From positions 1,586-65,585 of the forward strand of contig CBDUMN010000003.1 in assembly GCA_965368335.1 (NCBI GenBank): 64,000 bases of DNA, read 5' to 3'. Below, piece by piece: positions 28,231 through 63,579 of the stretch. Source of the DNA: an uncultured Rhodospirillales bacterium (lineage in GTDB: Bacteria > Pseudomonadota > Alphaproteobacteria > Rhodospirillales > JAPHRK01). The notes below the pieces were generated by a model. It did not search any database, was not told where the DNA came from, and was given only the letters and a program-made list of their open reading frames with translations. Each line of letters starts with the position of its first letter. Position 1 is the first letter of the stretch. A program made the position numbers and the translations under genes.

Positions 28231-28258
28231 GACGGCAATTTGCAGATCCATTAGAGAA

Positions 28259-30040: not shown

Positions 30041-30087
30041 TCATGCTGGTTGCCCGGCAAGACACTTTATTAAGTAAGGAGAGCTCT

Positions 30088-41368: not shown

Positions 41369-41438
41369 GACGCCCTACCTCTATAAGCTGGAAAGGAAAA
41401 ACTATTGTAATATCAGGGCATCATCTAGCCTAAATGAT

Positions 41439-47101: not shown

Positions 47102-47180
47102 ACTGACACCCCTTCCTATTAATGCCGTGTCCGGCCCACCTGTTTCACTGGCCGTCACGATACGCCGCACGATGCGGGAT

Positions 47181-47207
47181 CAATCGACCATTACACGAGG
47201 TAGTTTA
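47181..47207 (-). promoter_or_regulatory. weak sigma28-like promoter upstream of the FlaF paralogue
   Basis: The minus strand reads TAAA-N15-GTCGATTG (consensus TAAA-N15-GCCGATAA), ~70 nt upstream of ATG 47101. Only a 5/8 match in the -10 element. Confidence 0.2.
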
Positions 47208-47248
47208 CCTGATTCCTATGGCAAATCAACGCTCTCGCAAACTATCGA

Positions 47249-49085: not shown

Positions 49086-50276
49086 ATGATCTCTCTTGAC
49101 CCTCTCCATCAAGCTTTGCGCAACAATCCTTCCGACCAATCCAATTGGATAAAACTTGGATTGGCCTTACTGCAGCTTGGTTGGCGTCAAGAGCTATTCA
49201 AACTCTGTCAAGTCCGCCAGGACCAATTCGGCGACGGTCCCCTTCTGTTGTTTACGATGCTCAACCATGCATCGACCCCTCAACTGAAACGCCGGATAGT
49301 CCAAATGGCCAATGATTCTCCGGCAGGGACACCGCTCACCATTATTTTTGATTTTTTCGCCGGTTGCCTCACACTGCTTGAAGGTAATCCTCGCAGTGGA
49401 TTTAGCTTTTTAGATAAAGCCGCCAGGAGTGCGGTCAATTTTGGAAGCCTGTTTCGGGATCACGAAAAGCTATCGAACATTATCATCCAACATTTTTTGA
49501 TCAGGCCGCCTGCTGATGTAGCCGAAACGGACCTTTCGTGGCCCCATACCGAACTCCCCCCTCTTGAGTGGGGAACGTCGGCACAGCAGCATCAAAAAAT
49601 CGAAAAAAATCTGGTCATCATGGCCTGCTGCAACGATACCTACCATCGTCGCTTTGGCGAGGAATTCATCAAAACTCTTTCGCCTTATGGCCACATCCAT
49701 ATCCACGTCGCCAACGCATCTGTAGAGATGCGGGAAGAATTGGAAAAGGATGCGGAAAATAAAGCCTTAAGCTACTCTTATGAAGACTCCGGTTCCCATG
49801 GAATCGGCCATTACTACGCCGTCATGCGGTTCCTCAACGCACGGGCGATTATGGAGTTCTTTAACCAGGATCTCCTTATTTTAGATATCGACTGCGAGAA
49901 AGTGTCGAACTTACCTGAACTCATCGAGGCCTCACAAAAGCACGATGTGAGCTATTTCAGAACCGGCAACTACATGCCCTGGCTCGACCACCACGCAGCT
50001 TATATGTATCTAGCGCAAACGGCCGGAGGACAAGCCTACGCTTCGCGCCTAAGGTCCTATATTGCCTCGAAACTAAACAAAGCCTGTTGGATGCTCGACC
50101 AATCATCCATGTGCTCTCTTTATAATTTTTATCTAAGCACCGATTTTCATGACGGGAAAACACCGGTCGATCTGCATACTTTCAAGCAGTCTGACGGATA
50201 CGATTTCTGGTCCTATTTTCAGCCAAGCGGAACTGCTGAAGAAAAATGGGAATATCGCCTACAAAAAAACGATTGA
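49086..50276 (+). CDS. hypothetical protein, possible GT-A-like nucleotide-sugar transferase
   Basis: 396 aa. The only hints are a central LVIMACCNDTY...LLILDIDCE (DxD-like) arrangement. The N-terminal ~60 aa look TPR-like. Confidence 0.3.
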   Translation: MISLDPLHQALRNNPSDQSNWIKLGLALLQLGWRQELFKLCQVRQDQFGDGPLLLFTMLNHASTPQLKRRIVQMANDSPAGTPLTIIFDFFAGCLTLLEGNPRSGFSFLDKAARSAVNFGSLFRDHEKLSNIIIQHFLIRPPADVAETDLSWPHTELPPLEWGTSAQQHQKIEKNLVIMACCNDTYHRRFGEEFIKTLSPYGHIHIHVANASVEMREELEKDAENKALSYSYEDSGSHGIGHYYAVMRFLNARAIMEFFNQDLLILDIDCEKVSNLPELIEASQKHDVSYFRTGNYMPWLDHHAAYMYLAQTAGGQAYASRLRSYIASKLNKACWMLDQSSMCSLYNFYLSTDFHDGKTPVDLHTFKQSDGYDFWSYFQPSGTAEEKWEYRLQKND

Positions 50277-50357
50277 TCGGAGGAAGAGGATTTCCCATTT
50301 CCGACAGACTCGGTCGCAGCCCATGGAATATATTGCTCGCACAAGCAAGAAACCCGC

Positions 50358-52280
50358 TCATGAGCCCCCCTTGCCAATTGGGCCAGGTCTCAGCCCCTCT
50401 CCATAATGTTTCCACATGGTTAAATACAGGGTTTCGAGGTTCCTGACCTTTGCAGTTGTATCGAACAAGGGGTGGGTTTTTCTGTTTTCAACAACACGAT
50501 ATTTTAGTTTCCGCAGCCGACCGATATCTTCAACGATTTCCAGAACAAGATTTTCATACGCCTCAAGATCAGACGCGATAAGTTCTTCCAAACCATGCGA
50601 ACAAAGAAGGCTCTCGGAAACTCTGGAAGCAAAATGGCTCCCAGCAATGGCGACGACCGGGATACCGGCCCATAAGGCGTCCGTTGTCGTGGTGTGCCCC
50701 GTATAGATCCGCGTATCGAGTGCCAAATCGGCCAAAGCAATACGCGCCAGATGCTCAGGCTTTGAAAGCTTATCGGCGAAAATCAAGCGATTGTCTTCTA
50801 TCCCTGCGGCCCGCGCCTGGGCCTTTAAGTTTTTTTCAGCTTCTCGGTTATGGCCGAACAGCCAAAGTACGCTTCCTTGAATTTGATGGAGCAAAGACAT
50901 CCAGACGGAAAACATCTGCCTGTCGATTTTATATGTCTGACAGAAGCAGCAAAATACCAATGCATTTTCCGGCAAACCCTGTGAAGCTCGACTTAGCAAT
51001 TGAGGGCCCACAGCCTGTTCATTATCGGTTGGCCAGTAGGTCCCCTCAAGATAAGCGGGGGCTTCCGTGAAGAATGGGACATCGCTGGCCGGGCAAACGA
51101 TGTCATCAACAAGTACGTAGTCGAGGAAATCCCCCCCACAGGTACCGGGATAGCTAAGATACCCTACCTGCAACGGGGCTGGCCGTAATGCACAAATTTC
51201 GAGTCGCGAGCCGTCCGTATGCCCCGTCAAGGCGATGAGGATATCAATACCGTCTCGATTGATCCGTTCCGCCGCTTCTCCATCGTTCAAACCAGCAACA
51301 TCGACAAAGCGGTCGCACGATGCGGTTATCGCTTGGCGGTGAGGACTTCCGTCATCGGGACCGAAAGAATAGGCAAACACCTCAAAAACATCCCGGTTAT
51401 GCTTGCCATAAAGGCCTGCCGTATTATGGGCGGTGGGGTGATCGTAAAAATTTCCACTCAAATAGCCGATCCGAAGTTTCCCTCCATGGAAGCCACTCTG
51501 GTTAAAGGAAACCCGCTGGCGAATGGGCGCCAATTTATCGACCATCTCCGTCGACCAAGCTTTGGCGACTTCCAAATTTCGCTCTGGATGTGCACTCCTG
51601 GCGATACTCATAAACGGCGTTTCTCCAGGGCGTTCGCCATCGGCCAGGGCCTTAACAGTTTGCTCTTCCATACGCGCCTCAACCTGTTCCATCTCCTCCC
51701 AGGAGCAGGTTTTCTGCAGAATATGGAAAAGTTGCGCAACGGCATCACGATCATCAGGCACACAGGAGACAACCTGATTCAGCATTTGCTTTGCTTCCCC
51801 AAAACGCCCGAGAAGCTCCAGGGCGCAGCCCCGATTGTAAAGGGCGGCGCAATTATCAGGAGCAAACTCAAGGGCTTTGTCAAACCGGCCAAGCGCCTTT
51901 TCTAGTTCCCCCATTTTGAGATAAACGCCACCCAGATTAAGATTTAATACAGGGTTCTCGGGGGCAAGACTCAAGGCCTCTTTAATAACGGACTCGGCAC
52001 ACGTAAGATCGCCACGGGCAATCAGGGTCAAACCGAGATTAACCGACGCTTCACTGAATGATGGATTAATCTCGAGCGCCCTACGATAATGTGCTTCTGC
52101 TTCGGCATACCTCCCCAAATCTGACAAGGCATTACCTAGATTGCTAGGCACAGCTGCCGATTGCGGCGCAAGCTCCATAATACGCTTTAACAGATGTATG
52201 GCCGCCTCCGCCTCCCCTGCGGCCCTAAGCGCGCTGGCCTTCTCAAAAAGAACCGCAAGATTGTCTTTCGGCATGTCCAT
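50358..52280 (-). CDS. TPR-repeat / GT41 (O-GlcNAc-transferase, SPINDLY-like) glycosyltransferase
   Basis: Roughly five to six TPR units in the N-terminal ~200 aa. The C-terminal GT41 hallmarks are LRIGYLSGNFYDHPTAHN, DGIDILIALTGHTDGSRLEICALRPAPLQVGYLSYPGTCGGDFLDYVLVD, and ALVFCCFCQTYKI. Confidence 0.8.
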   Translation of the reverse strand: MDMPKDNLAVLFEKASALRAAGEAEAAIHLLKRIMELAPQSAAVPSNLGNALSDLGRYAEAEAHYRRALEINPSFSEASVNLGLTLIARGDLTCAESVIKEALSLAPENPVLNLNLGGVYLKMGELEKALGRFDKALEFAPDNCAALYNRGCALELLGRFGEAKQMLNQVVSCVPDDRDAVAQLFHILQKTCSWEEMEQVEARMEEQTVKALADGERPGETPFMSIARSAHPERNLEVAKAWSTEMVDKLAPIRQRVSFNQSGFHGGKLRIGYLSGNFYDHPTAHNTAGLYGKHNRDVFEVFAYSFGPDDGSPHRQAITASCDRFVDVAGLNDGEAAERINRDGIDILIALTGHTDGSRLEICALRPAPLQVGYLSYPGTCGGDFLDYVLVDDIVCPASDVPFFTEAPAYLEGTYWPTDNEQAVGPQLLSRASQGLPENALVFCCFCQTYKIDRQMFSVWMSLLHQIQGSVLWLFGHNREAEKNLKAQARAAGIEDNRLIFADKLSKPEHLARIALADLALDTRIYTGHTTTTDALWAGIPVVAIAGSHFASRVSESLLCSHGLEELIASDLEAYENLVLEIVEDIGRLRKLKYRVVENRKTHPLFDTTAKVRNLETLYLTMWKHYGEGLRPGPIGKGGS

Positions 52281-52478
52281 TTATTGCTGCAGCCATTTTT
52301 CATTGTGTGATGAACAGCACAGCCCCATATTTGGCAAAATCCTATGATAATTAACGCAAAAGCAACCAAGCGCCTGTTAAGAATAAGTGTAATATCTTTA
52401 CCAGTTGCCCTGAAAGAGCTAAAATATCTTTTGGCTCAACGAGTTAATTGAAGGCTGGAAGATAGAGACGGAACCGCC

Positions 52479-53552
52479 ATGGACGTATTGACCGCCAGCA
52501 CCAAACAGACCAGTTTTGCACTTGCCCGCCTATTAACCCAGATGAGCGAGAGCCAAGAGGCGCGCATTAAAACCGAAATGCGCCCCATTGAAGCGAAGCA
52601 TGATAAACGGGTCCATAATGCAGAATTGCAGATGGATCGCTGGAAAAAGGTCAGCAAAGATATTGGCGAAGCTACGTCAACACTCGCAGGGAATATCAGC
52701 AACTTAAAATCAATCCGATCAAAACTCGACGGACTGCTCTCAGCCGTCAACAAAGCCGACCAGCGGGCCTCAGACCCCAGCTTTAACCCTGATGGGTATG
52801 CAGCCTCATTCGACGCTCTTATGAAAAGCATTTCCTCCAGTACGGAAGACTCCGGGCGCGACGTCAATCTGATCGGAAAACGCAAAGTCTCACTTGAATA
52901 TCCAACCGATATTTATGGCCGTAAAGAAGAGGTTGGGAGCGTTTCTCTGGATAGCGACTATTACATCATCGATAACGATGGCGGGCGCTGGGTTCTTGAT
53001 CGGCAAGCCGGAAATCTTAAACGTTATACCGATTATCCAAATGGCGCGACGAGTTCTGTCGGCAGCTTTCCAACGGGCATTCAGTTAGACAGCATCGATT
53101 CAGACGACAACCTCACTTTTACCATTGCTCCAAATACGGCATCCCCAGAAACTTTTTCCGGGACGCTCTATCGTAGCGGACTTAACATTATGGATTCATG
53201 GTACTATGAGGGGCTTTCAACGGCGGATGCGCGAAATGCCGCAATTAGTGACATTCATTCTGCACGCAAAGCTATAAAGCTCGAAATTGCGCGATACGAA
53301 AGCCAGTTCTCTCTGGCTCAGTTCTATGAAGAACGCGCCAACGGCGAGGTCGGAGGCCTACGGGAAGATAAGAACGAAGCCTTGTTAGCCAAAGCAAAAG
53401 AGGTGGGAAAAGCCAAAGAAAAACTCATCCGGGAATTTCAAGCAGCGCAAGACGCCATCCAGATGTCGACGATACTTAAAAGAGAATATGCATCTTTTCT
53501 CAAACCAACGGCCAACACGCTGGGTCGGCAACTGATCAGCATCTTAAGTTAA
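52479..53552 (+). CDS. hypothetical protein with degenerate flagellin-like termini
   Basis: 357 aa. The helical N-terminal ~110 aa, a Ser/Thr/Asp/Gly-rich middle and a helical C-terminus parallel the flagellin at 60394-61311. YAASFDALMKSISSSTEDSGRDVNLIG matches EYSDQLKELAVQIEKLVSDATYQGLNLLN. FSLAQFYEERANGEVGGLREDKNEALLA matches LQVRADFTEEYIGTLETGAGKLTVADLNEEGANLLA. Confidence 0.4.
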   Translation: MDVLTASTKQTSFALARLLTQMSESQEARIKTEMRPIEAKHDKRVHNAELQMDRWKKVSKDIGEATSTLAGNISNLKSIRSKLDGLLSAVNKADQRASDPSFNPDGYAASFDALMKSISSSTEDSGRDVNLIGKRKVSLEYPTDIYGRKEEVGSVSLDSDYYIIDNDGGRWVLDRQAGNLKRYTDYPNGATSSVGSFPTGIQLDSIDSDDNLTFTIAPNTASPETFSGTLYRSGLNIMDSWYYEGLSTADARNAAISDIHSARKAIKLEIARYESQFSLAQFYEERANGEVGGLREDKNEALLAKAKEVGKAKEKLIREFQAAQDAIQMSTILKREYASFLKPTANTLGRQLISILS

Positions 53553-53563
53553 TCATCCAACAA

Positions 53564-55546
53564 TCAAACGTCTGAGCGGGAAGCGGTTTTTTTTATCTGC
53601 CTTAAAAAAGCCTGTGCCTCTTTAAATATTTCTCCCGCCAACACATCGAACCGCCCCAGAAAAAAACAGAAATAAGCTGTTCGATCTTTGTCGCTGGCTA
53701 TTCGGGAACCGCGATAGGTGCCTAAACGTGCCAAAGACAACAGCGACCCATGCACTAATCTCACTACGCCCCGGAATTTATCTCCTCCTTCCCCTAAAAC
53801 AGCCTCAACCTGCCGCTGCAAGGCAATATATTCTTGGGGAGGATTAGTTGAGATGGAATTGTGAAGGGCATCATAAAGCGCATCACATGCCTCAATATGA
53901 CCATCAAAATCGGTATCACGCAAAAATTCAGCTGGCGTAAAATATCTCAAACTCATTTCCAGTTCTGAAATAAGTGTCTTTTGCGATATATCGCATATCT
54001 GAAAATCCAGGGTATTTGAGGCTAATGACTTGGCGCCATCAACCCGCGCCCCCCAACTACAGTTCGTCACATCAAGATTTTTTGTTCTGATAAGTTCCGT
54101 GATGGTCCGTCGGGAGAGATCATAATAAGCAGACGTAGCAATCTCACCGCCAAAATTGCCGGGCACAAGGCGGGTAAATTCGCCTTCAAGATATTCATGC
54201 CCCTCGCCTTCAATAAAATTGTCATAGCCCTTTTCATAATAGACTGCGTCTTTGGAATGATGCAGTCCTCCTTGCACCCGACCACAATCGACGCCAAACA
54301 TGACAAACCTCTTAAATCCAAGGCTCGACATCGCCGCCAATGCCGCATTGGCAACCAGAGGACCGGCGTAGGCAACAGGCTCCCACTTTGATGCAAGAAC
54401 GTGGGCGGGACTGAGCGTTGAACGGAAGTAATACCAAACCCGCTCAAACATTTCACTGGCCTCCCGGTTAACGGTAGCCGAGGCGATAAGAGTGATCCCT
54501 TCAAAGCCGAATTCATCTTGGAAGGTCTTCAAGTTTTGAACGAGAGGATAAGAATTTTCGTTCTCTATATGGAAATCTGGTCTGATCCCATTTTTGAGCA
54601 AAACGCCTAAACTACTGCCACAACTAACAACCAGCGCCCCTTTGCGGAGCTTAGCGATATCCTTAAGATCATTATCCAGAGAAGGCCCCGAACCGACGAT
54701 GAAAACCGTCTCATCCCTAGTTGCAGAATTGCTCCCTTCTAAAAGACGGACGCTTCCGGTCGCCAGATTATCGACCGCATTCTCCATCATCATTTTTTCG
54801 TCGCCAAAATGACCGGGGCGGATTAGGAAATTCCCAATTCTTTCATTCAGTATTTTCCGGCATTCAATCACTTGCCAGGACGGATAATGAATAAAGGCAA
54901 AGGTCCCATCGATAAAACGCGCAGCTCCCGAATGTATAATGAGCGCCTCAGCTTCAAGCATAAACCGCTCCGGCGTCAGTCCAATTTTAAAGTGAAGAGC
55001 CGTTCCCTGGTCTTCTGCCTGTTTAAACACCTTTTCCCAGTCAAGGGCGTACATTGAATGCTTAACGAACTCCGGCACCGGCTCGACCACAACCATCTGT
55101 TCAGCCCTGCATTGCTCGAGAAGCATCGGAATGTGGTAGCCGAGTCCCAGACCAAAAACGAAAGCAATACCGACATCGCTCACAGGAAAGTCTTCGGAAA
55201 TCCCAATCCCATTTTCTTGAGCAAACCGGTCTAACTCTTCAGCGAGCCTAAATGTCAAGGAGGGCTGGCTATCATCCAGCGGGTCGGGGATTTTCAAACG
55301 ATCCGGGCTGGAAAGGTAAGCCGCAACCTGTTTGGTTACATAGGATTTCGCCGCCTCCGGATACAGCTCTACACCGGCAACTTTTAAATTTACCGCCTCA
55401 CCGCCTTGATAAACAACTTGTCCACCTTGGCCACCGTTTCCCGATAAAGATCGCAAAACATGTGGATGTGCCCTGGCAAACGCCTGGAGATTTCTCGAGT
55501 AGAGCGAGGCTGCCTTTATGTCATTCGGGCCCGACACCGGCAACAC
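53564..55546 (-). CDS. maf: motility accessory factor Maf (DUF115/MptE-like putative flagellin glycosyltransferase), copy 1
   Basis: The central Maf signature is VFIVGSGPSLDNDLKDIAKLRKGALVVSCGSSLGVLLKNGIRPDFHIENEN, followed by MFGVDCG. The annotated GTG 55546 may be replaced by GTG 55537 (GAGGG 7 nt upstream). Confidence 0.85.
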   Translation of the reverse strand: MLPVSGPNDIKAASLYSRNLQAFARAHPHVLRSLSGNGGQGGQVVYQGGEAVNLKVAGVELYPEAAKSYVTKQVAAYLSSPDRLKIPDPLDDSQPSLTFRLAEELDRFAQENGIGISEDFPVSDVGIAFVFGLGLGYHIPMLLEQCRAEQMVVVEPVPEFVKHSMYALDWEKVFKQAEDQGTALHFKIGLTPERFMLEAEALIIHSGAARFIDGTFAFIHYPSWQVIECRKILNERIGNFLIRPGHFGDEKMMMENAVDNLATGSVRLLEGSNSATRDETVFIVGSGPSLDNDLKDIAKLRKGALVVSCGSSLGVLLKNGIRPDFHIENENSYPLVQNLKTFQDEFGFEGITLIASATVNREASEMFERVWYYFRSTLSPAHVLASKWEPVAYAGPLVANAALAAMSSLGFKRFVMFGVDCGRVQGGLHHSKDAVYYEKGYDNFIEGEGHEYLEGEFTRLVPGNFGGEIATSAYYDLSRRTITELIRTKNLDVTNCSWGARVDGAKSLASNTLDFQICDISQKTLISELEMSLRYFTPAEFLRDTDFDGHIEACDALYDALHNSISTNPPQEYIALQRQVEAVLGEGGDKFRGVVRLVHGSLLSLARLGTYRGSRIASDKDRTAYFCFFLGRFDVLAGEIFKEAQAFLRQIKKTASRSDV

Positions 55547-57515
55547 CCTCTATCTTATCACGCCCTTCCGCCATTTGCCCGAGTACGTTACGGGTATCAT
55601 CGACCATCAGCTCAACTTTTTCCTTATAGGCCCCCATAAAAAAGCGGAGGAAAGCCAAACGGTCGTCTTGGTTAGCGATCCGCGTTCCGGCAAAAGCCCC
55701 AACCCGGATCATTGATACCAAGCTTGATCTGATAATAGAGAGAATACCCCGGCAGGGGGCTTCCAGGCGATCACGGAGGGTGATAATCCGGTGATGAAAA
55801 TCCCAAAAACTTTCATCCTCCCCGAAAGCCTCATCCATCGCCTTGAGAAATTCGTCCTCAAAAAGATCACATTTGGCGACAAGGTCATCGAGATCAAGAC
55901 CCGACAAATATTCTCCAGCAGGAAATGAGGGTAACGTCTGTGCAATACGGTTGATTAGCTGGGCCTGATACCCTTCAGGTCCATGAAAGGTCAGAGCCGA
56001 CGCGGCTTTAGGGGCAGCTCCATCTATCTTTGCACCATCACTGCAATTGACAACTTTGACATCGGATCGCTGGCATAAAGGGCCAAAACTAGCCCGCGAC
56101 ATGTCCAAATACCATGTCGTTAAGGCCTCACCACCAAAGTTGGCGGGGACAACACGGTCAAACTCATTCTCTAATAGCTCAAAACTTTCGCCTTCAAGAT
56201 AATTGTCATAATCGTCTTCATAATAAATCGCTTCACCTGCATGGTGGCCATGCTCGGTCCGTCGCCCGCAGTCCACTCCAAAGAAATAGAAATTACGGAA
56301 CCCAACGCTCAGCATAGCGGCCATCGCCGAATTGGCGACAAGGGGGTCGGCCCCTAAAAGAGGCGCAAGCCCTCGATTGAGAGAGGCTGTACAGCTCAAC
56401 CCCGTACGATAATAAAACCATCTTTTGTCAAAAAGTTTTCCAGCTTCAGGGTTTACCGATGTTGAGGCCACATAGGTAATGGGTGAAAGATCGTACTTTT
56501 TCGAAAAATTCCTGAGGTTCTCGACCAAAGGCCATGAATTTTCATTTTCTCCATGAAAATCCGGAACAATTCCGTTTTTCAAAAGAATCCCTAGACTGCT
56601 TGTCCCACAAGAAAAAACGATGGCCTTATTGCGCCATTTTTTGACAACGTCCAAATCCTTATCCAACGACGGTCCAGAACCCACAATGAAGACGGGTTGC
56701 TCTCTCTGAACGACCGGTTTTCGCTGGAGAAAGGAAAGCGGAAAACGATGCAGATTGCCGTAGGAGTTTGTCATCATCAGCAATTCATCTTCATAAAAGC
56801 CAGAAGAGATATAACTGACTGCAATCCTTTCATTGAGCAATCTGCGGGCTTCAAGAAGCTCCCAAGAGGGGTAGTGTATATAGGCGTAAGATCCCTCGAT
56901 AAAAGTTTTCCCGTCATCCCAAATATACCGTTCAATACTACGCACGATAACGGCAGGCGGCGCCCCTACGATAAAGCGCACCTCCACTGACTGCGCGTCT
57001 GCCGCTTCAAAAAAATCCGCCCAGTCGAAGACCTCAAATGAAGCACGAAGCAAAGCCGGTTGCGGCTCAATAAGAACCATGACCTTCGCTTTGTTATTTT
57101 CAAGCAGCAGCTTTAGGTGATGCCCAAGGCCAATACCAAAGACAAAGCAAAAACCGATATCAACAAGAGGATGGGAACTGACTTCTTCCCCATAATCGTT
57201 GGCGATGTAATCCCTGACCTTCGAAAGTAGATCTTTTGATATGGGTGATAAATTGCAATAGGCGGGGCTGGCGAAACCAATGCGATCCGGATCGTCAAAA
57301 TAGTTTTCAACCTGTTTCTGACTGCAGCCGACAGCAGGTTCCTGATAAAGCAGAGTACCGCCGATACTTACATCGACGGCCTCCCCTTCTTCATAAACAA
57401 TCGATACATCCGGTGAGCGCCGTTCTTCCCCAAGACGCCAGAGGTCAGGAGATCGCGTTTGAAAAATTTGTCTGTTTTTTTCAAATAAAGTTAGGTCGCC
57501 AGCTTGATTGTTCAT
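55521..57515 (-). CDS. maf: motility accessory factor Maf, copy 2 (tandem paralogue)
   Basis: VFIVGSGPSLDKDLDVVKKWRNKAIVFSCGTSSLGILLKNGIVPDFHGENEN and FFGVDCG. It is collinear with copy 1 along the whole length. Confidence 0.85.
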   Translation of the reverse strand: MNNQAGDLTLFEKNRQIFQTRSPDLWRLGEERRSPDVSIVYEEGEAVDVSIGGTLLYQEPAVGCSQKQVENYFDDPDRIGFASPAYCNLSPISKDLLSKVRDYIANDYGEEVSSHPLVDIGFCFVFGIGLGHHLKLLLENNKAKVMVLIEPQPALLRASFEVFDWADFFEAADAQSVEVRFIVGAPPAVIVRSIERYIWDDGKTFIEGSYAYIHYPSWELLEARRLLNERIAVSYISSGFYEDELLMMTNSYGNLHRFPLSFLQRKPVVQREQPVFIVGSGPSLDKDLDVVKKWRNKAIVFSCGTSSLGILLKNGIVPDFHGENENSWPLVENLRNFSKKYDLSPITYVASTSVNPEAGKLFDKRWFYYRTGLSCTASLNRGLAPLLGADPLVANSAMAAMLSVGFRNFYFFGVDCGRRTEHGHHAGEAIYYEDDYDNYLEGESFELLENEFDRVVPANFGGEALTTWYLDMSRASFGPLCQRSDVKVVNCSDGAKIDGAAPKAASALTFHGPEGYQAQLINRIAQTLPSFPAGEYLSGLDLDDLVAKCDLFEDEFLKAMDEAFGEDESFWDFHHRIITLRDRLEAPCRGILSIIRSSLVSMIRVGAFAGTRIANQDDRLAFLRFFMGAYKEKVELMVDDTRNVLGQMAEGRDKIEGVAGVGPE

Positions 57516-57555
57516 CTCTCAAACTAGCCGTAAACCGGCTTTGCCATTAAGCAGA

Positions 57556-59490
57556 TCAGCAAACGTCTTTCCACAATCGCTCAAGAACCGTCTCCATATC
57601 AATGCAACGGGCCTTGAAATCAAACAACGGTGCTTTAGAGATTTTTTCAGCAGCATCCTGCTTGAAAGCTGCGCGCCCAGCCTCATCTTTAATCCATCGC
57701 TCAACTAAGGCTAAGTAATCTTTCCGGCTGGTCGCCACGCAACTTTCCGACATCCCCATTTGCGTCAGAACTTCCGCACTTACCTTATCCGCCGTGCGGC
57801 TACCTTTCATACAGATAGGAGGAACGCCAAAACCTGCACTTGTCACCACACTGAGATTTTGGTGACCGCTTGTAGGTACTAGCAGCAAGTCAATCTGAGA
57901 ATAAAACTCTGACTGCGTCGCGCTTTGAATAATGTCGATCCGGTGTGAAACACCAAAATTTCCAAATAAATCTAGGACTTTGCCCGCATTCTTCGCATTT
58001 TGGAAATCGTAATCCTGCATCAGCAAGGTTGCGCTAGGGTATTTTCTGAGAAGCTCCGCCCACAGTCCAACAGAATCTGGCGTCAACTCACACAGCTCGG
58101 CATCGACGCCAAACGTCAGAAGGTCACTCGTCCGCTCAAGAACAGAACGATCGTCGGGCTTAGGCACTTCCACCAGCATGTTTCCATGCTCAAGCAACAC
58201 GATCTTTTCTGCTAAAATACTCTTGTTTTCAGGAACCATCTCGCCCCCCAACATGAGAGCATCCATGTTCTTGAGCCCCGTTCCATAAGGCGTTCCATGG
58301 AGTGAAACTTGGAGAGGCGCCATACGGGCGCCGAATGCCCGCAACAACTGAGGATCATTAAACCCAACGGTATTGATAAAAATATCGACCCCTTCCGCCA
58401 AGCAAATGGCCGCCAAAGTCACCGGGTCCATTTCTCGAACATCGTGCCAGATATCAAATGCTTTTTGGTAATGGACATTTGATGCGTCACTTAAAGCCCC
58501 AAAACCGAAGCCAACCGTCCGGAAACGGGCGGCATTTCGGTGAGCGAGAATATTTGCAAGCGCTTTCCCCTCACTGCGACGGGATAGAGAGCCCAGCAGA
58601 TAGCCAGCGGTCAAAATCGGTTTGTCGGTTGCCTGCCCCTCATCAAAGCCTTGGTCTTCTTCGCCGAACCGAGCACCCCATTGAGCAGCCAGCTCACAAA
58701 GGGCTTCTTCCGTTGATTCTGGCGATAAGGCTAAATCTGAAATTGCTTTTGCAAAGTATTCAGAATTCTCGCTATCAAGATGCATCGCCCATTTGTGGAC
58801 GGACTGGCTTTGGCCATACTCACCAATGAGCGCGAGAAGAGATCCTAACATACTGGCGATATCAGGGTCTTCGGCTAGACGGTGCATTGCACCACGTAAA
58901 ATATCGACAGCTTCTTGGTAACGCCCCAATACCGTCAGGCAATTCACTAACCCAAGATAGGATTTCTTATCATCCTGCTTAAAATGAATACATTGCAAAA
59001 ACCAATGTATCGCCATCCCCCAGTCTTTAGACGAAACGGCCGCGACGGCACGAGTGAATAGTGGATTATCCTCAATATCGATAAAGGCGCTCGATAAGCT
59101 TGGAATCGATTGTGGCAAGATTTCCTTTAAGGCCGGAACGGAAGGAACCGAACTTGCTAATTTGGCATAAAACAGTGACTTGGTCAGTTCCCCTGCAAGG
59201 GCGTAAAGCACCGCCAAAAAATCGGCATATTCACTGACATTCGAATCCGCATTTAGCGCGGCTTCGCCAAGCGCCACGGCTTCAGCCCAGTCATCCTCAA
59301 GAAAGCGTCCAATTGCCAAAACATAGTACGCTTCAGCATAGATGGACGTTTCTTTTAAATCGGCTTGTTGCTCAAGAAAAGCAGCGCAGGCATTGCTAAT
59401 ATCAGACCAATTACCGTCCGCAACACCTTCGCCAACAATCGAAAGGAAACCCTCCCGCGTCGTAGCGGCATCAATAACCAAATTACTCAT
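57556..59490 (-). CDS. TPR-repeat / GT41-like glycosyltransferase (FlmG-like architecture)
   Basis: The N-terminal ~280 aa are TPR-like. The C-terminal half follows the GT41 layout (GVDIFINTVGFNDPQLLRAFGARMAPLQVSLHGTPYGTGLKNMDALMLG ... LLTFGVDAELCELT). It lies 7 bp downstream of flaF. Confidence 0.7.
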   Translation of the reverse strand: MSNLVIDAATTREGFLSIVGEGVADGNWSDISNACAAFLEQQADLKETSIYAEAYYVLAIGRFLEDDWAEAVALGEAALNADSNVSEYADFLAVLYALAGELTKSLFYAKLASSVPSVPALKEILPQSIPSLSSAFIDIEDNPLFTRAVAAVSSKDWGMAIHWFLQCIHFKQDDKKSYLGLVNCLTVLGRYQEAVDILRGAMHRLAEDPDIASMLGSLLALIGEYGQSQSVHKWAMHLDSENSEYFAKAISDLALSPESTEEALCELAAQWGARFGEEDQGFDEGQATDKPILTAGYLLGSLSRRSEGKALANILAHRNAARFRTVGFGFGALSDASNVHYQKAFDIWHDVREMDPVTLAAICLAEGVDIFINTVGFNDPQLLRAFGARMAPLQVSLHGTPYGTGLKNMDALMLGGEMVPENKSILAEKIVLLEHGNMLVEVPKPDDRSVLERTSDLLTFGVDAELCELTPDSVGLWAELLRKYPSATLLMQDYDFQNAKNAGKVLDLFGNFGVSHRIDIIQSATQSEFYSQIDLLLVPTSGHQNLSVVTSAGFGVPPICMKGSRTADKVSAEVLTQMGMSESCVATSRKDYLALVERWIKDEAGRAAFKQDAAEKISKAPLFDFKARCIDMETVLERLWKDVC

Positions 59491-59497
59491 CGAAACC

Positions 59498-59938
59498 TCA
59501 CGCGGTTATTTCACCATTGCCTAGCCCCTGGGGGACCTCCGCCTCTTCCTCTTTTTCTTTCTCTTTGGAAGAGCCGGGCAGCGGCGTCCTCAACCCAGCG
59601 GCCAACTCCCGGTTGATATTGATCAACACATCAAGCTTCTTATGATCCGGGTTCGCAATGAGATCCATGGAATATTTATCGATAAAATTCGCAAGAGAAA
59701 TGCCATTATTCCGGATATCATCCGGCAAGGGGCACTCTGGGCTGAGCAATTCCGCTTGCAGAATAGTCCAAAGCTGCCAATTAATGCGAACTGCAGCCAG
59801 AACAACCTCTGTCTCACCGCTTTCTTTCGCCGCTTTAAGCCGCAAGGCTGCTTGGGTTAATCCCCAGGCCTCAACCTCCCTCGGGTTCCCCGGAGCCGGG
59901 GGCGTCTCGTAGTTTTTCAGCAAGTTGTTCGTTGACAT
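59498..59938 (-). CDS. flaF: flagellar biosynthesis regulator FlaF
   Basis: LKNYETPPAPGNPREVEAWGLTQAALRL...NWQLWTILQAELLSPECPLPDDIRNNGISLANFI...LININRELAAGL matches the FlaF family pattern. Confidence 0.85.
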   Translation of the reverse strand: MSTNNLLKNYETPPAPGNPREVEAWGLTQAALRLKAAKESGETEVVLAAVRINWQLWTILQAELLSPECPLPDDIRNNGISLANFIDKYSMDLIANPDHKKLDVLININRELAAGLRTPLPGSSKEKEKEEEAEVPQGLGNGEITA

Positions 59939-60320
59939 GCATAAAAACCTTACTTTCGTGGGAAATAAGTCTCTGCGCTTTCTTCAAAGCCTTATAAAGT
60001 TCCCGTTTTTCAACCAGTCGCCATAACTCATCACCAATCGGCTGGGCGCTTGGTGCAGCCTTTAGGTAATCTGACAGGAATTCATTAAAGCGCCGTAAAT
60101 TGTCGGTGAATTCTGATGGGAAAAGGTAGAGACACTGCAAGGCGTAATAGGCCCGTGCGGCCGGGGTGACGGCGTCTTCCGGCGAAAGAACATCATTATC
60201 ACGCAATAGCGAGGCATCGTTCTTCAGAAGCAAGGATACATTACTGCTTCCGGTATTTTCGATAACCGCCCCGTTGATGATAATCTGCTGACCTTTTTTC
60301 AAATGAATTTTAAGCGGCAT
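59871..60320 (-). CDS. flbT: flagellin translational repressor FlbT
   Basis: MPLKIHLKKGQQIIINGAVIENTGSSNVSLLLKNDASLLRDNDVL...ARAYYALQCLYL is the conserved FlbT N-terminal pattern. Confidence 0.9.
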   Translation of the reverse strand: MPLKIHLKKGQQIIINGAVIENTGSSNVSLLLKNDASLLRDNDVLSPEDAVTPAARAYYALQCLYLFPSEFTDNLRRFNEFLSDYLKAAPSAQPIGDELWRLVEKRELYKALKKAQRLISHESKVFMHVNEQLAEKLRDAPGSGEPEGG

Positions 60321-60331
60321 GAACGACTTCC

Positions 60332-60371
60332 CCTAAAAAAATAACAGCCAGGGTAAAAAATACCCTGGCTG
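60332..60371 (-). terminator. strong Rho-independent terminator after the flagellin gene
   Basis: The minus strand reads CAGCCAGGGTA-TTTTT-TACCCTGGCTG (perfect 11-bp stem) followed by TTATTTTTTTAGG. Confidence 0.8.
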
Positions 60372-60393
60372 CCACTTTAAGAAAAGGAATGTC

Positions 60394-61311
60394 TTACCTG
60401 AACAGACCCAGGATCGACTGCTCGGCCTGACCTGCGAAGGACAGAGCCTGGATACCCAGCTGCTGCCTGGTCTGCAAAGCAAGAAGGTTCGCACCTTCTT
60501 CGTTAAGGTCGGCCACCGTCAGCTTGCCAGCACCGGTTTCGAGAGTGCCAATGTACTCTTCGGTAAAGTCGGCGCGGACCTGAAGAATGGCCACGTTGTT
60601 CGCCATCGTTGCCGCTTCAGCCTGAATGTTACTGATCGTTTCATCAAGACGAGTAACCGCCGTATCGGCCATAACGTTAAACGAAGCGAGAACTTCGGCG
60701 TCATCGAAATCAAATGTCGAAAGCAACGCCCCAAAACCGAGCGTACTCTGAACGATATCCTCCGTAACAGATGCGTTCGGTGCATTGAGCGCCGAACCGG
60801 CGGAATCCAAGAAGAAGGTCGAAGCATTGAAATCAACGCCATCCACATCCAGCTTAGAATCAGCCTTGTCGGAGAAGCGAACCGAAAGCTTCGAAGACGT
60901 GGAGTTCAAGAGGTTCAGACCCTGGTAAGTCGCATCGCTGACCAGCTTTTCGATCTGAACAGCCAGCTCTTTTAGCTGATCCGAGTACTCGGCGCGCTGA
61001 GCCGTGTCACCACTACGGGCACTGTCGATAATACCCTTCATCTGCTTGGCGAGATCTTCCAGCGCATCGGCCGCCTTCAAAGCGGTGTCGAGAGCGCTGA
61101 TACCTTGGTCGATCGCCGACTTACGGTCGGAAAGATCGGCCGCGCGGTCATTCAACGACTTAGCCTGGAAAAACTTCACCGCGTCATCAGACGGCGATGC
61201 AATTTCCAAGCCCGTCGACAGACGACCCTGCGTCCGGTCAATAAGACTTGTCGTATTTTGCAGAGAAAGTAGGTTTGAGCGTACTGCTGAGGATAGAGAT
61301 ACATCAGCCAT
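60394..61311 (-). CDS. flagellin (305 aa, alphaproteobacterial short type)
   Basis: N-terminus LSSAVRSNLLSLQNTTSLIDRTQGRLSTGLEIASPSDDAVKFFQAKSLNDRAADL and C-terminus NLLALQTRQQLGIQALSFAGQAEQSILGLFR. AAGGGAG RBS. Confidence 0.95.
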   Translation of the reverse strand: MADVSLSSAVRSNLLSLQNTTSLIDRTQGRLSTGLEIASPSDDAVKFFQAKSLNDRAADLSDRKSAIDQGISALDTALKAADALEDLAKQMKGIIDSARSGDTAQRAEYSDQLKELAVQIEKLVSDATYQGLNLLNSTSSKLSVRFSDKADSKLDVDGVDFNASTFFLDSAGSALNAPNASVTEDIVQSTLGFGALLSTFDFDDAEVLASFNVMADTAVTRLDETISNIQAEAATMANNVAILQVRADFTEEYIGTLETGAGKLTVADLNEEGANLLALQTRQQLGIQALSFAGQAEQSILGLFR

Positions 61312-61382
61312 TAGGAATTCTCCCTTTCTAGGTGAGACTGTACAGTTTGCGCTTTTCTAGCGCTTGCACACTGTATCATGCT

Positions 61383-61431
61383 GAAAATGAAAAATCCATT
61401 AACCTTATGGGCGTGGGGATATTTTCATTTC
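61383..61431. promoter_or_regulatory. imperfect inverted repeat upstream of flagellin
   Basis: GAAAATGAAAAATCC (61383-61397) and GGATATTTTCATTTC (61417-61431) form a ~15-bp imperfect inverted repeat with a 19-bp spacer, 72-120 bp upstream of the flagellin ATG. Confidence 0.25.
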
Positions 61432-61451
61432 CCGACTACGTTCCAGCGCCT

Positions 61452-62606
61452 CTAATCCAATGATAATATCTTGATAATCTTAGATATTTCACTCGACAAA
61501 AGAGTTGAAGACGAGGGCAGGCAAAGAGCTGATTTCTGAATTTTTTCAGCATTGTCTCCACCTAAAACAACCGAATCTTGATGCGCCGGACTTCTGTGAA
61601 GCGGTTGCCATAGGGGTCTTGTCTCAATCCCCTCTTGCCGCAGTTTTTCTGCAATTTCTATTCGAGAATTATTTTTGATGAGAACCGCAGAAAGCCAGTT
61701 GACGGCCTCTACATTTTTGGGAATCGGCATAAAGTTTAGAAAATCAACGGTTTTGCAGAATTCCGCATACTGCGCGGCAATGTCACGGCGGGCGGCAATA
61801 AATTGATCTATCCGCTCCATCTGGGCACAGCCCACCGCCGCCTGAATATTGGTCAGACGGTAATTGAACCCAATATCATCATGGATAGATTCAATGGGAT
61901 CGGCTTTCGCCTGGGTGGATAGGTGCGCAGCTTTTTCGAACCATTGGGTGTCGGGCGTAACGACCATCCCACCACCACCACTCGTCACGAGCTTATTACC
62001 GTTGAAACTGAAACAACCGATATCACCCAGCGTTCCCAGGAATCGACCTTCATATCGCGCTCCCAAACCTTCCGTCGCGTCCTCGATCAACGGAACGCCC
62101 AAGCTGCGCGTTACATCCAAAAGCGGCGGCAGGTTGACGGCGCTGCCAAGGATATGAACGGGGAGGACGGCGCCAATGCGTCGCCCCGTCTGTTTATTGA
62201 ACACGCCATCGGCACGCTTTTCACACCCGTTTTTTAGAAAATCGACAGCAAGCCCAACGTCCATCTGCCAATCATTCGGGTCGGCATCGACAAAAACCGG
62301 ATAGGCCCCAACATAGCGAATGGCATTGGCGGGCGCGATGAATGAAAGAGTGGAGACCAAAACCTCGTCACCGGGCCTAACGCCGGCCACGATCAATGCC
62401 AAATGCAGAGCCGCCGTGCCGGTCGCCGTAGCGACCGAGTGAGGCGCACCGACAAAATCAGCCACTATTTTTTCAAACCGACCGACAAAAGGTCCGGCGC
62501 TCGAAACCCAATTTGTGGAAATGCACTCAGCCAGATACGCCGCTTCATTACCCGATAGGTCTGGAGCGCTCAGCGGTATGAATGACTCTTTCGCGTCAGA
62601 TGGCAT
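61452..62606 (-). CDS. DegT-family aminotransferase, LegC-like
   Basis: IPLSAPDLSGNEAAYLAECISTNWVSSAGPFVGRFE and TGTAALHLALIVAGVRPGDEVLVSTLSFIAPANAI. Start ATG 62606 overlaps the upstream stop by 11 nt. The ORF also extends to an upstream ATG at 62651. Confidence 0.8.
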   Translation of the reverse strand: MPSDAKESFIPLSAPDLSGNEAAYLAECISTNWVSSAGPFVGRFEKIVADFVGAPHSVATATGTAALHLALIVAGVRPGDEVLVSTLSFIAPANAIRYVGAYPVFVDADPNDWQMDVGLAVDFLKNGCEKRADGVFNKQTGRRIGAVLPVHILGSAVNLPPLLDVTRSLGVPLIEDATEGLGARYEGRFLGTLGDIGCFSFNGNKLVTSGGGGMVVTPDTQWFEKAAHLSTQAKADPIESIHDDIGFNYRLTNIQAAVGCAQMERIDQFIAARRDIAAQYAEFCKTVDFLNFMPIPKNVEAVNWLSAVLIKNNSRIEIAEKLRQEGIETRPLWQPLHRSPAHQDSVVLGGDNAEKIQKSALCLPSSSTLLSSEISKIIKILSLD

Positions 62607-63579
62607 AGGTGTCCCGCCGGAAACGATCCCGGTTGGCCTCAATCCAGGCAATTGTTTTTTTCAACCCCTCCTCCAGAGCAACCTCCGGCTCCCAGCCGAT
62701 CACCTCTTTTGCCAAACGGTTATCAGAGAGCAGACGCTCAACCTCGCTAGCCGACGGGCGAACACGTTGCCGGTCTGTTTCGCTTGTCAGCTCCACCCCC
62801 ATCAACCTGCCAATCAAATCCCGAAGATCGCCAATACTGATCTCACGCCCCGTCCCGAGGTTGACCGTTCGGCCTTCGCACCCAACCGCTTCCCCTGCTT
62901 TTAAAAAGCCTCTGACCGTATCATCGACCAGCGTCAAATCACGGGTCGGTGAAAGACTTCCAAGCTTAACCACATTGCCATCCAGCGCCTGGGATATAAT
63001 CGTCGGAATGACAGCTCGAGCCGACTGGCGGGGGCCGTAGGTATTGAACGGTCGCACCGTAACCACAGGCGTTTCAAAGGCGCAATGGTAGGACTCGGCG
63101 ACCTTATCGGCTGCAATCTTGCTAGCCGAGTAAGGCGATTGCCCCTGTAAAGGATGATCCTCGTCAATCGGCACTCTTTTAGCCGTCCCATAAACTTCGC
63201 TGGTCGAAGTATGAACCACGCGCCGCGTCCCAAAATCACGCGCCGCCTGCAACAGGTTCATCGTTCCTTCTACATTGGTTCGGAGGTAAGAGCGCGGTGC
63301 ATGATAGGAATAAGGGATGGTAATGAGCGCCGCCAAATGGAACGCCGTATCAATCCCCTCCATGGCGCGCCGGACAGATTCCGGGTCGGCAATATCGCCG
63401 GGATAGATCTCCATCTCCTTGGCCAGCTTGCTGTCATCAAGCCAACCCCAGGTTCCTGCGCCATTGTAATGGACCATGGCCCGCACATCCGCGCCTTCTT
63501 CGGTCAACTTCTCGGCCAAATGGCTTCCAATGAATCCCCCCGCCCCGGTCACCAGAACTTTTTTGCCTTGCCATGTCAT
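62596..63579 (-). CDS. NAD-dependent sugar-nucleotide 4,6-dehydratase, LegB-like
   Basis: KKVLVTGAGGFIGSHLAEKL...VHYNGAGTWGWLDD...FHLAALITIPYSYHAPRSYLRTNVEGTMNLL follows the LegB-type pattern rather than PseB-type TGGTGSFG. ATG 63579 overlaps the upstream stop (ATGA). Confidence 0.8.
   Translation of the reverse strand: MTWQGKKVLVTGAGGFIGSHLAEKLTEEGADVRAMVHYNGAGTWGWLDDSKLAKEMEIYPGDIADPESVRRAMEGIDTAFHLAALITIPYSYHAPRSYLRTNVEGTMNLLQAARDFGTRRVVHTSTSEVYGTAKRVPIDEDHPLQGQSPYSASKIAADKVAESYHCAFETPVVTVRPFNTYGPRQSARAVIPTIISQALDGNVVKLGSLSPTRDLTLVDDTVRGFLKAGEAVGCEGRTVNLGTGREISIGDLRDLIGRLMGVELTSETDRQRVRPSASEVERLLSDNRLAKEVIGWEPEVALEEGLKKTIAWIEANRDRFRRDTYAI

Follow-up and report, generated by a model that had tools for sequence, protein, structure and literature searches.

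The stretch of DNA analysed here (64,000 nucleotides, hereafter the window) carries on its minus strand a string of genes encoding flagellin, FlbT, FlaF, a TPR/GT41-like protein, and two Maf proteins, as judged from the ORF list and Pfam searches. Flagellin (305 residues; 60394–61311; PF00669, 3.3e-16; PF00700, 2.4e-5), the presumed glycosyl acceptor, shares 86% identity with the orthologous flagellin of a related species. Directly 3′ of its stop codon, sequence reading and RNA folding revealed a perfect hairpin with a U-run (about 60335–60378, minus strand) resembling an intrinsic terminator, with a ΔG of −38.5 kcal/mol and a z-score of −7.9; none of 200 shuffled sequences equalled its fold. 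Flagellin is therefore probably transcribed mainly on its own. The following genes are flbT (59871–60320; 149 residues; PF07378, 2e-31), encoding a flagellin translation regulator with 91% identity to its orthologue in the related species, and flaF (59498–59938; PF07309, 7.6e-25), encoding a flagellin secretion chaperone/regulator, the start of which is uncertain (115 or 141 residues among public gene calls). The GT41-like gene (57556–59490) is separated by 7 nt from flaF and by 40 nt from the first maf gene (mafA, 55521–57515), which overlaps the second (mafB, 53564–55546) by 26 nt if mafB begins with the GTG at 55546. These spacings agree with the preliminary description, which had also assigned the transferase genes to one operon with flbT–flaF, reading downstream from flagellin; flbT–flaF–GT41-like–mafA–mafB is probably a tight unit, and the inclusion of flagellin is doubtful in view of the hairpin.

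An alternative GTG for mafB at 55537, located 7 nt past a GAGGG, would give a 657-residue protein and a 17-nt overlap with mafA; it is chosen in three of four public gene calls and appears more likely to be the start than that at 55546. Convergent with mafB, a plus-strand gene (52479–53552) encodes a conserved protein of 357 residues and unknown function, for which no Pfam or NCBIfam match was found, and whose homologues adjoin the same gene module in other Maf loci (L013, L022, L023, L025–L028, L030, and L049).

Maf proteins and their sugar supply

MafA (664 residues; PF20157, 1.9e-37; PF01973, 7.6e-26) and MafB (660 residues from the GTG at 55546; PF20157, 2.4e-41; PF01973, 1.5e-28), previously termed maf copies 2 and 1, respectively, resemble known Mafs in combining the Maf N-terminal domain with an MptE-like GT-A domain, and in the location of their genes next to those of flagellin and of a CMP-nonulosonic acid pathway. 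In a search against solved structures, MafB (the copy tested) matched through residues 13–517 the Maf of Magnetospirillum magneticum AMB-1 (PDB ID: 5mu5; 5.6e-54; about 505 aligned residues), with which it shares the GSGPS, PDF..EN, and FGVD.G..HH motifs. Both window proteins are genuine full-length members of the Maf family. On the other hand, the Maf_C domain (PF20156) recorded for the Magnetospirillum group was not detected in them by the Pfam search, and two tandem Mafs are present in the window, unlike in Magnetospirillum. As the preliminary description had proposed, the two are tandem paralogues over their full length (39% identity across 631 residues; E = 2e-150). MafA and MafB are 67% and 60% identical, respectively, to their orthologues in locus L005, while the A–B cross pairs show 37–39% identity; the duplication is older than the split from a related species with about 60–67% identical Maf orthologues. 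The two Mafs are old tandem paralogues that have both been retained, and a division of labour between them is plausible.

Upstream of flagellin, the minus strand encodes an aminotransferase of the LegC type (61452–62651; TIGR04181, 1.6e-129; 431.9 bits, cutoff 420) and a 4,6-dehydratase of the LegB type (62596–63651; TIGR04180, 4.5e-134; 446 bits against a cutoff of 475). Further genes on the same strand encode a nonulosonic acid synthase fusion (35662–37905; PF03102 NeuB, 3.9e-84), which is scored higher by the NeuB_NnaB model (6.6e-100) than by PseI (8.5e-75), and a CMP-sugar cytidylyltransferase (37947–38675; PF02348, 1.1e-20); the latter two together supply the donor sugar. The Mafs are thus surrounded by a CMP-sugar pathway of the legionaminic acid type, in contrast to the Pse-type pathway reported for Magnetospirillum. 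More than one sugar pathway is present in the island, alongside genes for many tailoring enzymes.

GT41 fold and donor-binding residues

The Maf-associated GT41-like protein (644 residues; PF13844, 29.2 bits, cutoff 25) consists of about eight TPR-like helical hairpins followed by a GT41 catalytic domain with both of its Rossmann-like lobes. Its best sequence match in the PDB is SPINDLY (SPY; 7e-22), and its AF2 model (pLDDT, 83.7) was matched by Foldseek to SPY (3e-27) and to TtOGT (PDB ID: 5djs; TM-score, 0.83; root-mean-squared deviation, 3.7). The protein therefore has the GT41 (OGT/SPINDLY) fold, with the same domain order as human OGT, Arabidopsis SPINDLY, Xanthomonas XcOGT, and Thermobaculum TtOGT. 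It differs from these enzymes in the absence of residues equivalent to SPY Lys665, His495, Asn661, Thr748, and Thr749. In the active-site alignment, all five are missing from each of the 22 clade members, and Tyr744 from 21 of them, whereas the Lys, His, Tyr, and Thr-Thr residues are kept in all seven canonical GT41 controls. Likewise, none of 43 distinct maf-adjacent ORFs has Lys, His, or Tyr at the donor-binding columns, which are kept by the canonical OGTs of the same loci (3/3). In SPY, the K665A and H495A/F variants are dead, those of S496A, Y744A, and T748A are strongly impaired, and Asn661 contacts the GDP phosphate in the structure (PMC9715652). On the basis of the alignment, the clade has thus lost all of the GT41 donor-binding residues that have been validated by experiment. 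At the Lys column, the wider maf-adjacent family has Glu, Ala, Gln, Arg, His, Asp, or Thr, and its Thr loop is variable; the Arg of some subgroups, Magnetospirillum included, could still bind a phosphate. In the close clade, Glu or Asp replaces Lys in 19 of the 22 members, and this change might reflect a novel active site, such as one for a CMP-sugar having no β-phosphate, rather than a dead one.

The protein is not decaying. It is 57% identical to its orthologue in the related species (dN, 0.35; dS saturated), comparable to MafB (60%) and OGT (57%) in the same pair of species, and its catalytic-like half (N-lobe, 60%; C-lobe, 52%) is conserved to a similar extent as the TPR half (58%). Lys110, a VGFGxGxL motif, Asn338, and Asp355 are invariant and peculiar to the clade.

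A second TPR-GT41 gene located at 50358–52280 on the minus strand, also noted previously, is real (PF13844, 5.3e-98) and encodes in a separate transcription unit a 640-residue canonical O-GlcNAc-transferase-type enzyme, which matches human OGT (8e-138) and XcOGT (1.6e-76), keeps the Lys, His, Tyr, and Thr-Thr residues, and is probably active. Among the Maf loci surveyed, such an OGT is found near the module solely in the window's own lineage. The two proteins share 21% identity and only this one retains the catalytic residues, so that counting two of each transferase type, as had been done, is misleading.

Maf and FlmG are indeed treated in published work as two classes of flagellin glycosyltransferase, but the former designation of the two TPR-GT genes as FlmG/OGT-type fails in its FlmG part. 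Using authentic FlmG from C. vibrioides, recovered via a published primer sequence, BLASTP and profile comparison aligned it to the GT41-like protein solely across the TPR region (hhalign probability, 94.8%; E = 5e-8), with no homology detected between the catalytic halves; the catalytic half of FlmG gave no GT41 match and only a sub-threshold one to GT9 (E = 0.065). Neither window protein is homologous to FlmG beyond the TPR, and an FlmG-type identity was rejected on these grounds. The resemblance of FlmG (Caulobacter crescentus and Brevundimonas subvibrioides) lies in the order of an N-terminal TPR-like domain and a C-terminal GT-B-type domain, and in the position of its gene, which shares a flagellin locus of an alphaproteobacterium with flaF and flbT. 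FlmG acts alone in organisms without Maf, whereas the GT41-like protein is found beside a Maf in every context recovered.

Association with maf in other genomes

Of 77 metagenomic Maf loci, 53 have a GT41-like gene adjacent to maf, usually in the order flaF–GT41-like–maf, on the same strand and mostly within 0–260 nt of maf; this order was found in every genomic context fetched for members of the close clade. In L013 and L014, flaF overlaps the start of the GT41-like gene by 4 nt, and the two are translationally coupled in some genomes. In Magnetospirillum AMB-1 and MS-1, the order is flagellin–maf–GT41-like, with the same kind of neighbor, the start of which is overlapped by the maf stop; the AMB-1 gene encodes the structurally solved Maf. 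The GT41-like gene also follows maf, or adjoins it with no intervening flaF, in L034–L036, L044, L047–L058, and L067–L069, and maf rather than flaF is therefore the constant neighbor. The GT41-like gene is absent from at least three distinct Maf loci that have ample flanks on both sides (L045, L076/L077, and L081); the need of Maf for it in cis is therefore not universal.

Accordingly, the co-occurrence, formerly seen as an unusual meeting of alternative solutions, is normal for this Maf subfamily. Since the GT41-like gene stands next to maf in most related bacteria, its product probably works together with Maf as a partner rather than as an alternative enzyme; the adjacency indicates a shared process rather than a physical complex. 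A literature search found no description of this pairing. Flagellin glycosylation islands of enterobacteria also contain GT41/SPINDLY-domain genes (De Maayer & Cowan 2016, PMC4875605); these are presumed to encode active GlcNAc-type transferases, mostly fused to methyltransferase domains, and each island surveyed has glycosyltransferases from only one family among GT2, GT25, and GT41; unlike for the window gene, no pairing with Maf is mentioned in the parts of that account consulted.

Role of the GT41-like protein

We regard it as an even chance that the region represents a copy of a flagellin-glycosylation module widespread in alphaproteobacteria, (flagellin)–flbT–flaF–[GT41-fold TPR protein]–maf, with maf tandemly duplicated in this lineage and the GT41-like protein serving as an adaptor or scaffold for Maf. 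In this best reading, Maf transfers a sugar of the legionaminic acid type, with the GT41-like protein as its TPR partner, which is non-canonical and probably not catalytic. Before export, the Mafs (GT-A, sialyltransferase-like) would place a CMP-activated legionaminic acid derivative onto Ser/Thr residues of flagellin in the cytoplasm; the GT41-like protein, having abandoned the use of UDP- or GDP-sugars, would serve as their acceptor-recognition or scaffold subunit, its TPR superhelix holding flagellin that is possibly received from or passed to FlaF. MafA and MafB, both kept under constraint from a time before the species diverged, would probably share out acceptor sites or sugar variants, and the canonical OGT would be a real but lineage-specific enzyme. 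Such a role parallels that of the Maf-1 C-terminal TPR in Shewanella and that of GlfM, which acts in trans for Maf-2; in Shewanella oneidensis, Maf-2, part of a tripartite system with GlfM, needs this cis-encoded protein, and Maf-1 its C-terminal TPR, for binding flagellin and choosing sites (bioRxiv 10.1101/2023.12.03.569772). Like the GT41-like gene, that of GlfM stands next to maf in numerous genomes, although GlfM is an 89-residue four-helix bundle with no sequence relationship to the 644-residue partner, for which we infer the adaptor role. Counting against a partner, the Mafs of Geobacillus and Clostridium and Shewanella Maf-1 are functional without any such GT41-like protein.

A less probable, though still tenable, alternative is that the GT41-like protein is an active transferase with a rebuilt site, which either transfers CMP-nonulosonic acid as an FlmG analogue derived from GT41, or adds or extends a second sugar, with Maf performing a different step. 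Its GT-B lobes are as conserved as those of bona fide enzymes, the N-terminal catalytic lobe holds a cluster of invariant residues specific to the family, and a conserved acidic residue occupies the place of the Lys that neutralises the β-phosphate absent from CMP-sugars; FlmG also provides a precedent for a TPR and GT-B nonulosonic acid transferase. However, the replaced positions vary across the wider maf-adjacent family, as those of a common catalytic site should not; the His495 and Tyr744 equivalents, shaping the acceptor/sugar site, are gone as well; and a sialyltransferase-like catalytic domain is already provided by Maf in every such locus.

The view originally put forward, that Maf-type and FlmG/OGT-type proteins are alternative nonulosonic acid transferases and that four active enzymes divide sugars, sites, or priming and elongation, now seems improbable. 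It accords with the presence of two paralogous Mafs and a pair of GT41-type genes, with the multiple sugar pathways and many tailoring enzymes of the island, and with the probable activity of the canonical OGT, but neither TPR-GT shows FlmG homology outside the TPR, the operon copy has no GT41 donor-binding residues, and its association with maf is general within this Maf subfamily and not a special combination; the OGT forms a separate unit near the module in this lineage only, with nothing tying it to flagellin. Equally hard to credit is a TPR chaperone or checkpoint in the FlaF/FlbT circuit of secretion and translation control, next to maf only through common regulation of late flagellar genes. 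A secretion chaperone role is common among TPR proteins, and the GT41-like gene directly follows flaF in most loci, overlapping its stop codon in L013 and L014; against this, its constant neighbor, in Magnetospirillum and several other lineages, is maf and not flaF.

Organisation of the flagellin–maf region

Six consecutive ORFs, running from flagellin through mafB, occupy 53.5–61.3 kb of the minus strand. Flagellin (60394–61311), FlbT (59871–60320), and FlaF (59498–59938) were identified by ORF scan and Pfam, and Pfam assigned the remaining products as a 644-residue GT41-like protein (57556–59490; weak TPR matches and a C-terminal GT41 match just over the gathering threshold) and two full-length Maf proteins, MafA (55521–57515) and MafB (53564–55546). 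The spacings given in the preliminary description (gaps of 7 and 40 nt and a 26-nt overlap) are exact when the longest ORFs are taken; the likelier start of mafB is the GTG at 55537, which follows a GAGGG and is chosen by three of four public gene calls. A perfect hairpin with a U-run is located directly 3′ of the flagellin stop codon (60335–60378, minus strand; ΔG, −38.5 kcal/mol; z = −7.9), and is probably a terminator or attenuator parting flagellin from flbT–flaF–GT41-like–maf–maf. Flagellin is thus probably transcribed largely alone, the compact unit being flbT–flaF–GT41-like–mafA–mafB, which corrects the use of 'operon' in the preliminary description. A scan of positions 50000–62000 for sigma-70 promoters and terminators gave counts at the level of shuffled sequence, and the consensus terminator search omitted the flagellin hairpin.

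The second TPR-GT41 gene reported at 50358–52280 (minus strand) is real (PF13844, 5.3e-98). Its product is a canonical OGT, with full-length GT41 homology to human OGT (8e-138) and XcOGT (1.6e-76), and retains the K, H, Y, and TT residues discussed below. It constitutes a separate unit, because a conserved 357-residue gene is convergent on the mafB end. The product of this convergent gene (52479–53552, plus strand) has no family match, shares 71% identity with its counterpart in the related species, and has homologues adjoining the flaF–GT41-like–maf module in the fetched genomic loci L013, L022, L023, L025–L028, L030, and L049; it may be an additional component of the module. A 102-kb contig from JGI metagenome sample 3300010430 matches the window, and several related loci in the metagenome scan came from marine-sediment assemblies.

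GT41 fold and donor-site residues of the 644-residue protein

Structure modelling and profile searches identify the 644-residue protein as a GT41-fold protein, in which a bilobal GT-B domain comes after a TPR superhelix. In Foldseek searches, the AF2 model (pLDDT, 83.7) matched SPINDLY (SPY; PDB ID: 8dti) at 3.3e-27 and Thermobaculum OGT (PDB ID: 5djs) with a TM-score of 0.83 and an rmsd of 3.7 Å. Matches to Pfam PF13844 scored 29.2 and 32.2 bits (cutoff, 25), and the closest proteins by sequence are SPINDLY (phmmer, 7e-22) and bacterial OGTs.

Alignment with canonical GT41 proteins places Glu at the position of SPY Lys665 (Lys842 of human OGT) and Arg at that of His495 (His558 of human OGT). 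The Thr747–Thr749 phosphate loop of SPY is replaced by Asn-Leu-Ser, Tyr744 by Gly, and Asn661 by Ala. In SPY, Lys665 binds the donor phosphate, and mutants of Lys665 and of His495 are inactive (PMC9715652). Among the 22 full-length members of the clade of GT41-like relatives recovered by an index-free HMMER search, none has the Lys (17 have Glu and two Asp), the His, or the Thr-Thr pair, whereas all seven canonical controls, the neighbouring OGT among them, retain these residues. Lys, His, and Tyr were likewise absent at the three key columns from all 43 distinct maf-adjacent ORFs, and present in the three canonical OGTs found in the same loci (3/3). Word-indexed protein searches had yielded seven clade members, and the real spread emerged from the index-free search and the metagenome scan. 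Named relatives are annotated as hypothetical proteins in Rhodospirillales and Rhodobacterales MAGs. The top matches of the index-free HMM search (P0048–P0101) are giant proteins of 2000–3800 residues, each with 5–16 GT41-like stretches.

Mere decay of the gene was rejected, as its conservation is on a par with that of the Mafs and it carries invariant motifs of its own. Sequence identity to the orthologue from the related species is 57%, compared with 60% for MafB and 57% for the OGT, and its dN against this relative resembles the values for the real enzymes; dN and per-domain identity are reported in place of dN/dS since dS is saturated at this distance. Certain residues are invariant in, and peculiar to, the clade.

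Two classes of flagellin glycosyltransferase are distinguished in the literature, the GT-A type Maf and FlmG (TPR plus GT-B), the latter said to be confined to Caulobacterales. The operon-borne TPR protein had been taken as FlmG-type, an assignment that we examined against the authentic FlmG of C. vibrioides (596 residues; L008:1354–3144), located by a genome scan for the published primer NK-74. The N-terminal TPR domain is evident in the AF2 model as 16 paired helices (residues 12–275), its Pfam TPR matches being below threshold, and hhalign related it to the FlmG TPR with 94.8% probability over 178 columns. Such likeness is generic, and the TPR feature alone is therefore a weak sign of the FlmG class. 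BLASTP of FlmG against the GT41-like protein aligned 111 TPR residues and left the catalytic half unaligned; against the canonical OGT, the TPRs alone aligned. Profile–profile alignment of the GT41-like family with FlmG was confined to the TPR region (columns 58–256). The C-terminal half of FlmG itself has no GT41 match in Pfam or PDB, and gave a sub-threshold match to GT9 (E = 0.065). The FlmG label consequently fails for lack of homology in the catalytic domain that defines the class, and the resemblance is purely architectural. A TPR plus GT-B protein encoded beside flagellin is thus not necessarily FlmG, an annotation error that is easily made.

Pairing with maf and possible roles

Genes of this Maf subfamily nearly always have as neighbour a gene for a conserved GT41-fold protein devoid of the GT41 donor site, and the other flank of the GT41-like gene is usually flaF. 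Every recovered context of the clade members follows the order (flagellin)–(flbT)–flaF–GT41-like–maf, with flaF overlapping the GT41-like start by 4 nt in two genomes. A metagenome scan with a Maf alignment gave 77 loci, whose six-frame ORFs were searched with the clade HMM and a canonical GT41 HMM. A clade-type ORF is adjacent to maf in 53 of them. In most cases it immediately precedes maf on the same strand, 0–260 nt away; in a few it is 1.2–2.4 kb upstream, lies downstream, or is encoded on the opposite strand. The remaining 24 loci mostly have flanks too short to judge. The gene is clearly absent from L045, L076/L077, and L081, where the mafs lie outside flagellar loci; near the partner-less mafs of L045, L076, and L081, neither a fused TPR nor another adaptor was found. 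L081 (5737–14768) carries three tandem mafs followed by a NeuB and CMP-transferase fusion, with no GT41-like or flagellar genes nearby, and its Mafs may have a non-flagellar target. In L009 (3812–6404), the maf that follows the GT41-like gene is shortened to 385 residues and precedes a DDE transposase gene, which looks like a natural inactivation of the module. Directly 3′ of the maf of M. magneticum AMB-1, whose product has been crystallised (PDB ID: 5mu5), is a gene at L092:2650–4566 for a 638-residue GT41-like protein with overlapping stop and start codons, an arrangement also found after maf in M. magnetotacticum MS-1. With the clade HMM, the AMB-1 protein reaches 276 bits, versus 100 with the canonical one; its residue at the Lys column is Arg, and the His, Tyr, and Thr-Thr are missing. 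FlmG works in organisms without Maf, whereas the GT41-like gene is maf-adjacent in all contexts recovered; this genomic context argues against an FlmG-like self-sufficiency of its product.

Both Mafs of the window match PF20157 (Maf N-terminal) and PF01973 (MptE-like GT-A) far over the cutoffs, and MafB matched the solved Maf 5mu5 at 5.6e-54. Alignment of eight Mafs revealed 59 invariant columns, including the G-PS of GSGPS, FG.D.G, HH, and Asp319, Glu323, and Glu325 of the PDF..ENE motif; MafA and MafB both retain the motifs common with 5mu5. From family membership and the adjacent flagellin and legionaminic acid-type pathway genes, we infer that they transfer nonulosonic acid from CMP-Pse or CMP-Leg to Ser/Thr of flagellin. 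As noted in the preliminary description, the two are paralogous along their full length (39% identity over 631 residues). The proposed tandem duplication and divergence is also borne out, since the orthologues in the related species are 67% (MafA) and 60% (MafB) identical and the cross comparisons give 37–39%; the duplication is hence older than the species split, and both copies have been maintained. Tandem mafs occur also in L022/L023, L033, and L081, the common state being a single maf. MafA and MafB may divide the work between them, and the canonical OGT may have a role of its own.

According to a published view, reconstitution of the conserved Maf type has been hindered by missing components. 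In Shewanella, Maf-2 is served by a small adaptor, GlfM, and Maf-1 has a fused TPR domain (bioRxiv 10.1101/2023.12.03.569772). Judged by gap lengths, no GlfM-type gene (~89 residues, four-helix bundle) is present in the flbT–mafB string, there being no room for one in the 7, 40, and −26 nt gaps or the 11 nt after mafB. By analogy with the Maf-1 TPR and the GlfM/Maf-2 pair, the best-supported interpretation is that the GT41-like protein would act as an acceptor-recognition or scaffold partner of Maf, with transfer of the nonulosonic acid carried out by Maf itself. The main rival is that the GT41-like protein still transfers a sugar through a remodelled active site, perhaps fitted to a CMP-sugar; the Glu conserved in its clade and the conserved GT-B lobes are in keeping with such an enzyme, but these positions vary across the wider maf-adjacent family. 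Least supported is the original picture of four parallel transferases, in which FlmG-type and Maf-type alternatives are combined. We read the region as a Maf flagellin glycosylation system whose widespread probable partner had not been characterised before, a third arrangement beyond GlfM and the fused TPR that would be much more widespread in Alphaproteobacteria.

Extending the partner interpretation, the long-form alphaproteobacterial Mafs, including the crystallised AMB-1 Maf, might be two-protein enzymes, a proposal to which we give somewhat less than even credence. Their second subunit would be a pseudo-enzyme that selects flagellin and positions it for Maf, descended from O-GlcNAc/O-fucose transferases (GT41), with nucleotide-sugar binding lost and the TPR and GT-B scaffold kept. 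If so, it could be the missing component of alphaproteobacterial Maf systems and the first described pseudo-GT41. No Maf–GT41/SPINDLY-like pairing or pseudo-GT41 was described in the full-text literature searched, which covered work other than the Magnetospirillum Maf paper (Sulzenbacher et al. 2018), where the neighbouring gene may be mentioned; locus tags of the AMB-1 genes did not turn up there either. Passages of De Maayer & Cowan (2016, PMC4875605) note GT41 genes in enterobacterial flagellin islands as presumed active enzymes. Whether its part is that of a subunit without catalytic activity or of a new enzyme acting on CMP-sugars, the protein would represent a reuse of a glycosyltransferase fold, and OGT-derived proteins without the OGT donor site stand beside maf in dozens of lineages, including the tractable AMB-1 with its solved Maf structure.

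Sugar pathways and the surrounding island

Gauged against the GDP-GlcNAc route to CMP-legionaminic acid, the island around the module appears to encode a pathway of the legionaminic acid type, an assignment at the level of type with LegB, the synthase, and the cytidylyltransferase below their cutoffs. LegC scored 431.9 bits (NCBIfam cutoff, 420) and LegB 446 (just under the cutoff, 475); the island has a NeuD-type acetyltransferase, the NeuB-like synthase is nearer to NeuB_NnaB than to PseI and under both cutoffs, and the CMP-sugar cytidylyltransferase has its best match, below cutoff, in PseF. A gene with CBS and NTP_transferase domains (PtmE/LegX-like) is located at the right edge of the window, and no hydrolysing 2-epimerase was identified. 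The nonulosonic acid synthase (35662–37905, minus strand) is a 747-residue fusion of unusual architecture, composed of CBS, NeuB, SAF, and a xylose isomerase-like TIM barrel (AP_endonuc_2).

Numerous tailoring enzymes are also encoded in the island, as is a second sugar pathway, of heptose-like type. The latter (16014–25853, plus strand) includes an HldE-like bifunctional protein with reversed domains, a GmhA-like isomerase, a split transketolase, epimerases/dehydratases, and two further DegT aminotransferases, and suggests a heptose-derived glycan. A run of tailoring genes (40130–45841, minus strand) encodes a B12-binding radical SAM protein and two large methyltransferase-domain proteins, together with a weak, below-cutoff match to PhyH-like dioxygenases (E = 4.4e-4). 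The G+C content is 0.48–0.50 over most of the 28–62 kb island and reaches 0.55–0.60 in some stretches at the window's left end.

In the same island, a gene pair at 46757–48766 (minus strand) again unites a glycosyltransferase with a FlaF paralogue: a TIGR04372-family protein of 505 residues, scoring 189 bits (cutoff, 45), and directly after it a second, divergent FlaF-like protein (46757–47170). Between two radical SAM proteins, one with a SPASM domain, in the region 26845–31467 (plus strand), lies a TPR plus GT61 protein (28259–30040), a third kind of TPR-glycosyltransferase in the island. Just past the right end of the window (L001:1–4809) are a HisH/HisF-like amidotransferase pair, a 408-residue protein without assignment, and a further TPR-GT41 gene of 793 residues, which hint at an acetamidino-modified sugar and another OGT paralogue.
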